Below are positions 18,212-21,333 of a stretch of DNA of 64,000 nucleotides, piece by piece. The stretch lies in NCBI RefSeq assembly GCF_003334405.1, contig NZ_QOWM01000006.1. One strand, given 5' to 3'. Origin of the DNA: Escherichia coli. GTDB lineage: Bacteria; Pseudomonadota; Gammaproteobacteria; Enterobacterales; Enterobacteriaceae. Made by a program: the position numbers and the translations under genes. Under the pieces are notes generated by a model. The model was not told the origin of the DNA. It made no database searches and was given only the letters and a program-made list of their open reading frames with translations. The stretch's first letter is position 1; each line of letters starts with the position of its first letter.

Positions 18212-20563
18212 TCAAAATAGCCCAAGTTGCCCGGTCATAAGTGTAGCAAAATTATCCTCAATAAAAGGGAGTATTCCCTCCGCCACGGGTTGTAGCTGGC
18301 GGGTCAGATAGTGTTCGTAATCCAGTGGTGAACGTTGGTAGTCCAGCGGCTCCGGGCCGTTGGTGGTCCATACGTACTTAATGGTGCCGCGATTCTGATA
18401 TTGCAAGGGGCGACCACGCTTTTGGTTTTCTTCATCGGCAAGGCGAGCGGCGCGTACATGAGGCGGCACATTACGCTGATACTCGCTCAGCGGACGGCGA
18501 AGGCGTTTACGGTAAACCAGTCGCGCATCCAGTTCACCCGCCATCAGTTTGTCGATGGTTTCGCGTACATATTCCTGATATGGCTCGTTGCGGAAGATGC
18601 GCAGGTATAGCTCCTGCTGAAACTGCTGGGCCAGCGGCGTCCAGTCGGTGCGCACGGTTTCCAGCCCTTTAAACACCATCCGCTGCTTGTCGCCCTCCTG
18701 AATCAGTCCGGCATAACGCTTTTTACTGCCGGTATCGGCTCCGCGAATGGTTGGCATCAGAAAACGGCAGAAATGGGTTTCATACTCCAGTTCTAATGCG
18801 CTGGTCAGCCGTTGTTTTTGCAGCGTTTCCGCCCACCAGGCGTTAACGTGCTGCACCAGTGCACGACCGATTTTCGCCGCTTCTTCTTCCGAATGTGCGC
18901 CTTTCAGCCAGACAAACGTTGAGTCGGTATCGCCGTAGATAACGTCGTAGCCCTGTGCTTCAATCAACGCTTTGGTTTGCCGCATGATCTGATGACCACG
19001 CATGGTGATCGACGATGCCAGCCGCGGATCGAAGAAGCGGCAGGCGGTGGTGCCGAGCACGCCATAAAAGGCATTCATGATGATTTTCAGCGCCTGCGAC
19101 AGCGGTTTGTTACCCTGGCGTTTGGCTTCATCGCGCCCGTGCCAGATGTTAGTCACAATCTCCGGCAGGCAATGTTTTTCTCGCGAGAACCAGGCATCGA
19201 GAAAACCTTCGGTACTGTGCTCTGGATCAGGCTGCGCCATGCCTTCCACCAGCCCGACGGGATCAATCAGAAAGGTGCGGATGATCGACGGGTACAGGCT
19301 TTTATAGTCCAGCACCAGCACTGAATCATAAAGCCCTGGCCGTGAATCCATCACGTAGCCGCCAGGGCTGGCGTGCGGCGGCACTTCGCCGAGATTAGGC
19401 GCGACATAACCAGCGCGATGCATTCGCGGAAAATAGAGATGACCAAATGCCGCCACCGAACCGCCGTGTCGGTCCACCGGCAGGCCGTTCACCGTTGCCC
19501 GTTCGAGTAAAAATGGCATGATTTCAGTTTTGTGGAAGATCTGCGTCACCAGCTCGCAATCTTTCAGGTTATAAGTTGCCAGCGCAGGTTTATCTTCGGC
19601 GAAACGGCGGTCAATTTCGTCCATTCGATCCCACGGGTTATCGATAGATTTTCCTTCGCCTAATAGCTCCTGAGCGACAGTTTCCAGCGAGAATGAAGAG
19701 AAATTCCAGAACGCGGATTTCAGCGCCTCGATACCGTCGATAATTAGCCGACCTTTAGCCTGGGCAAAAAAGACGCCGTTTTTAAAGCCGTGCTCGCGCC
19801 ACTCCAGCTCGCTATTATCGCGCCCAAGACGCAGCGGAAGACGGTAACGCTCGGCATGTTTTTGCAGCATTCGCAGATCGAACTGCACCACGTTCCAACC
19901 GATGATCACATCAGGATCGTAGTTGGCAAACCAGGCGTTGAGTTTTTCCAGCAACTGCGGGCGGCTGGCGACGTATTCCAGTTCGAAATCAAGCGAGGAG
20001 GCGTCGCCATTCTCCGGCCCCAGCATATAAACGATGCGCTGCCCGCAGCCTTCCAGGCCGATGCAGTACAGCTCACCGTGGCGGGTGGTTTCAATATCTA
20101 TAGAAACCCACTTGAGCGGCGGACGATAGTCGGGATGCGGTTTCAGACGGGCATTAACGATAGTGCCATTGTGCATATCACCCTCGACCCACACCGGTGA
20201 GGTGATAAACCGCTCCATCAGATAGCGTTCTGGCGGACGCACATCGGCCTCGTAGACGGTAACGCCACCTTCACGCAGGCGCTTTTCGTAATTCATCAAT
20301 TGGCGATGGGCGCGACAGTAAAGGCCATACACCGGCTGGCGGTGAAAATCCTTTAACGCCAGCGGTGTCAGGCGAAAGCCTTGTTCACCCTGCAAAATAT
20401 GCTGAGCGCGGGGAACCTGATCGGCGGGAATAAACGCCACGGACTCTTGCGGTGCAAGCGTAACCTGCAACGGCCCGTTGTCCGTCGCCAGCCAGAAGGA
20501 GACTTCTGTCCCTTGCGGGGTGTCCCGCCAGTGTCGGGTTAAGATAAAACCTGCCTGCGCCAC
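18212..20563 (-). CDS. polB: DNA polymerase II (family B)
   Basis: 783-aa ORF with B-family motifs (YGDTDS); GTG initiation codon. Confidence 0.95.
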
Positions 20564-20582
20564 GCTGAAAATCCATCAAAAA

Positions 20583-20607
20583 ACCAGGCTTGAGTATAGC
20601 CTGGTTT
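20583..20607 (-). terminator. terminator-like hairpin + U6 (candidate araBAD terminator) lying in the polB leader
   Basis: Minus strand aaccaggct-atactca-agcctggtt followed by TTTTTT; 16 nt upstream of polB GTG. Confidence 0.5.
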
Positions 20608-20618
20608 CGTTTGATTGG

Positions 20619-20634
20619 CTGTGGTTTTATACAG
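20619..20634 (-). promoter_or_regulatory. LexA (SOS) box of polB/dinA
   Basis: Minus strand CTGTATAAAACCACAG matches the CTGT-N8-ACAG consensus; sits between araD stop and polB start. Confidence 0.6.
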
Positions 20635-20637
20635 TCA

Positions 20638-21333
20638 TTACTGCCCGTAATATGCCTTCGCGCCATGCTTACGCAGATAGTGTTTATCCAGCAGCGTTTG
20701 CTGCATATCCGGTAACTGCGGCGCTAACTGACGGCAGAATATCCCCATATAAGCGACCTCTTCCAGCACGATGGCGTTATGCACCGCATCTTCGGCATTT
20801 TTGCCCCATGCAAACGGGCCGTGGGAATGGACCAGAACGCCGGGCATTTGCGCTGCATCGATACCCTGTTTTTCAAAGGTTTCTACGATGACGTTACCGG
20901 TTTCCCACTCATATTCGCCGTTGATTTCTGCGTCGGTCATTTTGCGGGTGCAGGGAATGGTGCCGTAGAAATAGTCGGCGTGGGTGGTGCCGGTTGCTGG
21001 AATCGACTGACCCGCCTGCGCCCAGATGGTGGCGTGGCGCGAGTGCGTATGCACAATGCCGCCAATGGAGGGGAATGCCTGATAGAGCAGCCGGTGAGTT
21101 GGCGTGTCGGAGGAGGGCTTTTTCGTACCTTCAACCACTTCACCGGTTTCGATGCTAACCACGACCATATCGTCAGCGGTCATGACGCTGTAATCGACGC
21201 CGGAAGGTTTGATCACAAAGACGCCGCGCTCGCGATCAACGGCGCTGACGTTGCCCCATGTGAGCGTGACCAGGTTGTGTTTTGGCAGCGCCAGGTTGGC
21301 TTCTAATACCTGGCGTTTGAGATCTTCTAACAT
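20638..21333 (-). CDS. araD: L-ribulose-5-phosphate 4-epimerase
   Basis: 231-aa [48 protein letters not shown]... class II aldolase/epimerase. Confidence 0.95.

Follow-up and report, generated by a model that had tools for sequence, protein, structure and literature searches.

The hairpin between araD and polB of Escherichia coli as a probable araBAD terminator overlapping the LexA-repressed polB promoter

The hairpin upstream of polB resembles the intrinsic terminators of E. coli in its G+C-rich stem, its loop of 7 nt, its run of six U residues and its site after the last gene of an operon, and an upstream A-tract makes it look bidirectional. The hairpin between araD and polB differs from them in that its loop and arms double as the -10 element, the spacer and the start region of the next gene. 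With the LexA-repressed SOS promoters, polB shares a 16-bp operator of the form CTGT-N8-ACAG, placed over the -35 region at a fixed distance from the -10 element; it departs from them in the position of this operator, which lies relatively far upstream (-48 to -33), by a very weak -35 element. The listing of polB among the SOS genes and its repression by LexA are established (review PMC6590174). Another likeness is found in the frd/ampC region of E. coli, where the terminator hairpin of the upstream operon is likewise part of the control region of the co-directional gene that follows, across a very short spacer. The frd terminator is said to have been recognized as the ampC attenuator by Grundstrom and Jaurin in 1982. 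The promoter of ampC, which is located within frdD, has an attenuator (PMC11796351); being upstream of the hairpin, it yields an RNA that reads through it, which is true attenuation, whereas the polB start is situated inside the 3' arm. An earlier, sequence-only reading of the polB locus, in which polB transcripts had to pass through the hairpin, is the ampC model, and it is not applicable to polB. Finally, a run of six T from +4 (UGGUUUUUUG) is shared with the reiterative promoters of codBA, upp and pyrBI, to whose start regions, which we take to be of the GAUUUUUUG type, the polB start bears a resemblance. At codBA, upp and pyrBI, control is by reiterative transcription at the T-run; at polB, the likeness is one of sequence.

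The window, the whole stretch of 64,000 nucleotides that was analyzed, belongs to the E. coli chromosome. Around the site, 601 bases match K-12 MG1655 65500-66100 without a difference (MG1655 position = window position + 45217), for which the RefSeq annotation lists araD (65855-66550) and polB (63429-65780) only, and this region was found in 5401 of 5426 complete E. coli genomes. According to the open reading frames and the annotation of the identical MG1655 stretch, araD, the last gene of araBAD, occupies 20638..21333 on the minus strand, with its TAA stop at 20640-20638; polB, encoding DNA polymerase II, follows on the same strand at 18212..20563, with a GTG start at 20563-20561. The spacer of 74 bp contains, in minus-strand order, the araD stop, a LexA box, the hairpin and six U before the polB GTG, an order that the sequence-only reading had described correctly, with every element present at its place. 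Its distance of 16 nt between the U-run and the GTG has to be amended to 14 nt (GATGGATTTTCAGC), counted from the last U. For K-12, the SOS box, the start at -23 with its -10 element and the hairpin are already public record; an explicit account of the overlap between terminator and promoter did not appear in the literature searched, the original papers of 1986-1990 lying beyond the reach of that search.

In RNA, the hairpin is built from a 5' arm (GAAACCAGGCU, 20598..20608, minus strand) with the core CCAGGCU (20604-20598), a loop of 7 nt, AUACUCA, and a 3' arm (AGCCUGGUUUU, 20580..20590, minus strand) with the core AGCCUGG (20590-20584). Folding gives a G+C-rich core stem of 7 bp (dG -10.8), which is extended to 11 bp (dG -16.2) when A-U and G-U pairs draw in the upstream A-tract and four of the six U residues. 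The fold of 20608-20580 has a z-score of -5.4, and none of 200 shuffled sequences was equally stable. A stem of 9 bp had been claimed from the sequence; the hairpin itself stands, and the length falls between the core and the extended form. The stable G+C-rich stem-loop, the U-rich tract (UUUUUU, 20578..20583, minus strand) directly 3' of the core stem and the co-directional upstream unit, whose stop lies 30 nt before the hairpin, are sequence features by which an intrinsic terminator is recognized. A pattern-based terminator scan did not call the hairpin site on the minus strand, because the longest-stem rule of the scanner absorbs the U-run. On the plus strand, by contrast, the scan reported the mirror image of the site. 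The hairpin is nearly symmetrical (20581-20607), having an A-tract on its 5' side and a T-tract on its 3' side, and the plus strand of this interval is also terminator-like (tail CGTTTGATTG); it could stop antisense transcription leaving polB. Rfam families gave no match in 20000-21200, and the Term-seq tables of Adams 2021, obtained from cultures grown without arabinose, contain no araD 3' end, as expected under that condition.

The polB promoter was located by start-site data from two studies. By 5'-triphosphate-enriched mapping in glucose M9, Kim 2012 (PMC3415461) placed a start of E. coli polB at 65803(-), which gives a UTR of 23 nt, with the upstream sequence GACTGTATAAAACCACAGCCAATCAAACGAAACCAGGCTATACTCAAGCCT (2 reads), and a start of Klebsiella pneumoniae MGH78578 polB at 69499(-), with a 24-nt UTR (4 reads), whose upstream sequence ends in ...GCTATAATCAGGCCTG and whose place is homologous to that in E. 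coli. Independently, Mendoza-Vargas 2009 (PMC2760140) mapped a polB start at -23 (2 reads) and predicted 'ccagGCTATACTcaag' as its sigma-70 -10 element. In the window, MG1655 65803 corresponds to 20586 on the minus strand, a U in the 3' arm of the hairpin, 7 nt after TATACT and 23 nt before the GTG; in both species the mapped 5' ends fall inside the 3' arm, 7-8 nt past the hexamer in the loop. All of these maps come from uninduced, glucose-type cultures and from few reads (2, 2 and 4), small numbers that are to be expected of a LexA-repressed gene in undamaged cells. The -10 hexamer TATACT (20593..20598, minus strand), assigned from conservation, its spacing to the LexA box and the prediction of Mendoza-Vargas 2009, occupies the last pair of the stem and most of the loop. 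A weak -35-like hexamer at 20616..20621 on the minus strand (CAGCCA, three of six matches) was placed by reference to the -10 element and the start; it is separated from the -10 by 17 bp and overlaps the last three bases of the LexA box. A consensus promoter scan called nothing at this site, because the -35 is too weak; the evidence for the promoter was therefore taken from the start-site data and from conservation. The 5' UTR of 23 nt (UGGUUUUUUGAUGGAUUUUCAGC, 20564..20586, minus strand) contains a weak Shine-Dalgarno-like GGA at 20574-20572, and the first 60 nt of the polB transcript show no significant structure (z +1.2). The sequence-only reading had listed a promoter embedded in the hairpin, with TATACT in the loop, among its options, and the mapped starts bear this option out, as does the invariance of the hexamer in the 80 loci compared. 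With the C that precedes it, the -10 element (GCTATACT) resembles sigma-S-type promoters when judged by the sigma-S consensus. This resemblance fits the RpoS dependence of polB reported by Dapa 2017, as cited in PMC6590174.

The operator of this promoter, CTGTATAAAACCACAG (20619..20634, minus strand), is one of two CTGT-N8-ACAG matches in the 64-kb window. Its core positions are invariant in 80 aligned sequences, and it spans -48 to -33 from the mapped start, over the -35 region, so that operator and promoter overlap. Of the 79 usable loci, nearly all have a LexA-type box, CTGTA-N-CAG, 71-75 nt upstream of the GTG, and almost without exception exactly 20 nt separate the end of this box from the beginning of the -10 element, irrespective of the DNA upstream. 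This fixed distance ties the operator and the hexamer in the loop together as one promoter. A further weak start was recorded by Kim 2012 inside araD, at MG1655 65946 (window 20729), 166 nt before the polB GTG (2 reads); transcripts from there would have to cross both the LexA box and the hairpin.

Taken together, the hairpin is best understood as the intrinsic terminator of araBAD, overlapping the LexA-repressed promoter of polB in such a way that polB RNA starts inside the hairpin, a reading to which a probability of roughly 0.85 may be assigned. The anatomy, the start sites and the conservation pattern behind it come from the present analysis or from the data cited. On RNA coming from araD, the hairpin 20608-20580 and the six U would act as an intrinsic, Rho-independent terminator, at which, judging from its structure and place, araBAD transcripts probably end, some 60 nt past the araD stop. 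At the level of DNA, the same 30 bp constitute the core promoter of polB, the spacer being provided by the 5' arm, the -10 element (TATACT, preceded by C) by the loop and the start site (20586) by the 3' arm, such that the U-run becomes +4 to +9 of the polB mRNA. LexA bound at -48 to -33 would block RNA polymerase from the promoter and thus presumably represses polB by occluding the -35 region. The two signals are not in conflict and can coexist, since each keeps its sequence-specific part at a place where sequence hardly matters to the other: the loop of a terminator accepts any sequence and takes up the -10, and the spacer and start region of a promoter accept most sequences and take up the stem. 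Since the RNA from 20586 begins in the 3' arm and lacks the 5' arm, the terminator hairpin cannot form on polB mRNA, which speaks against leader attenuation, another of the options raised from the sequence; the accompanying claim that polB transcripts must cross the hairpin fails at the same point, the start at 20586 lying in the 3' arm and the LexA box covering the -35 region. It had also been stated that a polB start mapped downstream of the hairpin would reduce the latter to the araBAD terminator upstream of the polB promoter. In essence this is what the maps show, the start being located within the 3' arm and not fully downstream of it, with the same consequence.

For comparison, araD and polB were located in 80 loci of Enterobacteriaceae, one genome per species (designated by L numbers), and an alignment, A1, was built from 80 sequences, namely 79 usable loci and the window. 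The positions of the box, the hairpin and the GTG are conserved across the family, the GTG start being kept in all informative loci, and the -10 element TATA.T is invariant in the 80 sequences of A1, with TATAAT in most relatives. Between araD and polB lie 73-220 nt in 52 loci, as against 312-1502 nt in 25 loci that carry an insert. A hairpin enclosing the -10 element, with a dG of -11.7 or better (median -15.0), is present in all 52 close loci; among the insert loci, only 10 of 25 reach a dG of -10 or better (median -6.3), and the hairpin is decayed or lost in the other 15 (Mann-Whitney p = 4e-8 for close versus insert loci, uncorrected for phylogeny). Within Citrobacter, loci with araD adjacent have perfect hairpins (dG -13.7 to -16.3), as against uncompensated mismatches and a dG of -6.3 to -13.9 in those with an insert on the opposite strand. 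The 3' arm is gone, with -10 element and LexA box kept, in Salmonella, Phytobacter, Kosakonia, Pseudocitrobacter, Superficieibacter and Kluyvera cryocrescens. Loci in which araD is the neighbor retain the T-rich tail, and Phytobacter, Kosakonia and Pseudocitrobacter have lost it; since the T-run is absent along with the hairpin, it is to be assigned to the terminator and not to the promoter. In several lineages devoid of the 3' arm, araD is directly followed by a strong hairpin and T-run of its own, with a dG of -17.9 in Pseudocitrobacter, -20.8 in Phytobacter (L036) and Kosakonia (L037) and -12.4 in UBA5654 (L010). In compact loci, no other hairpin with a T-run occurs between araD and polB, and where the gap measures 112-220 nt, araD and the LexA box are separated by REP-like palindromes only, none with a T-run, so that even there the polB hairpin is the first intrinsic terminator downstream of araD.

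The ten insert loci with a preserved hairpin are mostly ones in which a co-directional gene ends immediately upstream of the LexA box (L017, L020, L039, L070 and L078); such a gene could use the same terminator. The link to araD adjacency is imperfect, as the hairpin was lost in Phytobacter and Kosakonia despite a co-directional upstream gene. In two loci, L076 and L079, both arms are replaced by AAAGTGGTC...GACCACTTT around an unchanged TATAAT, and in L078 the stem is re-registered; for such swaps of the arms, it is hard to find an explanation other than selection for pairing. Measured over the alignment as a whole, covariation is weak (three pairs changed on both sides; the covariation score was equalled in 104 of 500 shuffles), because the stem sequence is almost invariant, and the structural support comes from two or three lineages and from the loss pattern. 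The association of araD adjacency with the hairpin, with LexA box and -10 element fixed throughout, amounts to a small natural experiment, and the comparative loss pattern may be regarded as a modest new observation.

The 5' arm, AACCAGG(C/T) (A1 columns 43-51, window 20599-20607), is conserved to at least 90%, even in loci that have lost the 3' arm (L007, L011, L035-L037, L042, L044, L047 and L051); part of its conservation is therefore not due to the terminator. In spite of this conservation elsewhere, the 5' arm is fully replaced in L076 and L079. Both arms are Dcm sites (CCAGG at 20600-20604 and CCTGG at 20584-20588, minus strand), one of them in the promoter spacer (-18 to -14) and the other across the start (-2 to +3), and Dcm methylation or very-short-patch repair might contribute to the strong conservation of the 5' arm.

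Before the overlap of terminator and promoter is accepted, three other explanations have to be considered. It is very unlikely that SOS induction brings a different promoter into play, one that uses the TATAAA within the LexA box (20631-20626, five of six matches to the -10 consensus), the sole candidate for a -10 element ahead of the hairpin, and starts near 20619, so that the whole hairpin would lie in the leader and, before polB is reached, induced RNAs would in part be terminated or else have a masked ribosome site. Such a leader attenuator had already been predicted by software: Table S6 of Mendoza-Vargas 2009 (PMC2760140), drawing on the catalogue of Merino and Yanofsky, lists a polB 'translational attenuator/terminator' at 65787-65835 (window 20570-20618), and every map of the polB start was made without SOS induction. 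However, the start mapped in the same paper falls within the catalogued interval, and no start near 20619 is present in any of three data sets. The -35 element of a TATAAA promoter would have to be CATATT, in the last codons of araD, and the sequence upstream of the LexA box is unconserved across loci; the constant 20-nt distance, moreover, connects the operator to the hexamer in the loop, the hairpin is missing altogether in several lineages, and the 5' arm stays untranscribed from the mapped start. With regard to pairing, the outer flanks of the hairpin pair slightly better with their cognate partners than with permuted ones (-3.82 vs -3.09 ± 0.29 kcal/mol, P = 0.008, in 29 representative loci), a weak co-variation that counts for the attenuator. 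The predicted accessibility of the ribosome site (-14..+3) is nevertheless equal for promoter-derived and read-through RNA (0.43 vs 0.40 over 52 loci, p = 0.06), with E. coli in the opposite direction, and thus points to neither masking nor an alternative structure. In the window, CCAAUCAAA pairs with UUUGAUGG (20573-20580 with 20610-20618), lengthening the stem towards the polB ribosome site; an insulator function, in which the extended stem would mask this site on read-through RNA, was considered and rejected, predicted accessibility being alike on both RNAs.

It is highly improbable that the inverted repeat serves as an operator to which a dimeric regulator of polB binds, or acts through nothing beyond promoter and Dcm-site sequence, with no terminator at the level of RNA. 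The persistence of AACCAGG at 90% or more where the 3' arm is gone, and the CCWGG (Dcm) site in each arm, would suit a signal of this kind, but a protein site would not tolerate the exchange of both arms for an unrelated complementary sequence seen in L076 and L079, and the stem is followed by a U-run. Furthermore, the 3' arm persists in every locus with araD adjacent and decays if no co-directional gene lies upstream (Citrobacter, Salmonella), and araD gains a terminator of its own where it is separated from polB. The sequence-only reading had also offered dependence of polB on read-through from araD. In its full form, polB would be expressed mainly as a fourth araBAD gene, or from a promoter internal to araD, by RNAs leaking past the hairpin, with LexA as a roadblock, a proposal that must be called extremely improbable. 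Terminators are rarely complete, and the weak start inside araD at 65946 (window 20729, 2 reads) could feed such transcription; yet polB has a mapped start and an invariant -10 element of its own, its transcripts are detected in glucose medium, in which araBAD is off, and the same geometry of box and -10 element is maintained where araD is 0.7-1.5 kb away or the neighbors point the other way.

If the overlap is accepted, SOS-induced polB transcripts should be read as not attenuated, and the catalogued 'polB attenuator' would be the terminator of the upstream operon, seen from the wrong transcript. For annotation, the locus illustrates neatly how a terminator and a promoter can share 30 bp, and it advises against calling a leader attenuator from a hairpin plus U-run in a short co-directional spacer when start-site data are not at hand. 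Nothing fundamental changes for SOS or arabinose biology, the arrangement being ordinary and largely documented. Whether the overlap is a functional coupling, by way of arabinose or UTP, rather than mere compaction is a separate matter, and coupling is considered unlikely. Were it to exist, heavy arabinose-induced transcription of araBAD would cross the LexA operator and the polB promoter and stop at +4 to +9 of polB; it could then occlude the promoter, displace LexA or leak through, and the level of Pol II would respond to arabinose. Alternatively, the T-run at +4 to +9 could give rise to UTP-sensitive reiterative transcription, as at codBA and upp.

The spacer between araD and polB is an insertion hot spot across the Enterobacteriaceae (L005-L080). 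Inserts comprise REP-like palindromes (in the gaps of 112-220 nt), small open reading frames on the opposite strand in Salmonella and Citrobacter, and heterogeneous genes, among them a gene of 209-210 aa, co-directional with polB, for which only a weak DUF218/ElyC-like match was obtained. In Phytobacter, Kosakonia and Superficieibacter, the LexA box falls within the final codons of this gene, whose stop directly adjoins the -10 region, a terminator being absent between the two. The LexA box itself occurs in two forms among L001-L080, of the CTGTATAAAAC(C/A)CAGC type where araD is adjacent and of the CTGTACAAAA...CAGTA type, with ends nearer to the consensus, where an insert lies upstream; that the two forms track their context suggests two old alleles of the region.
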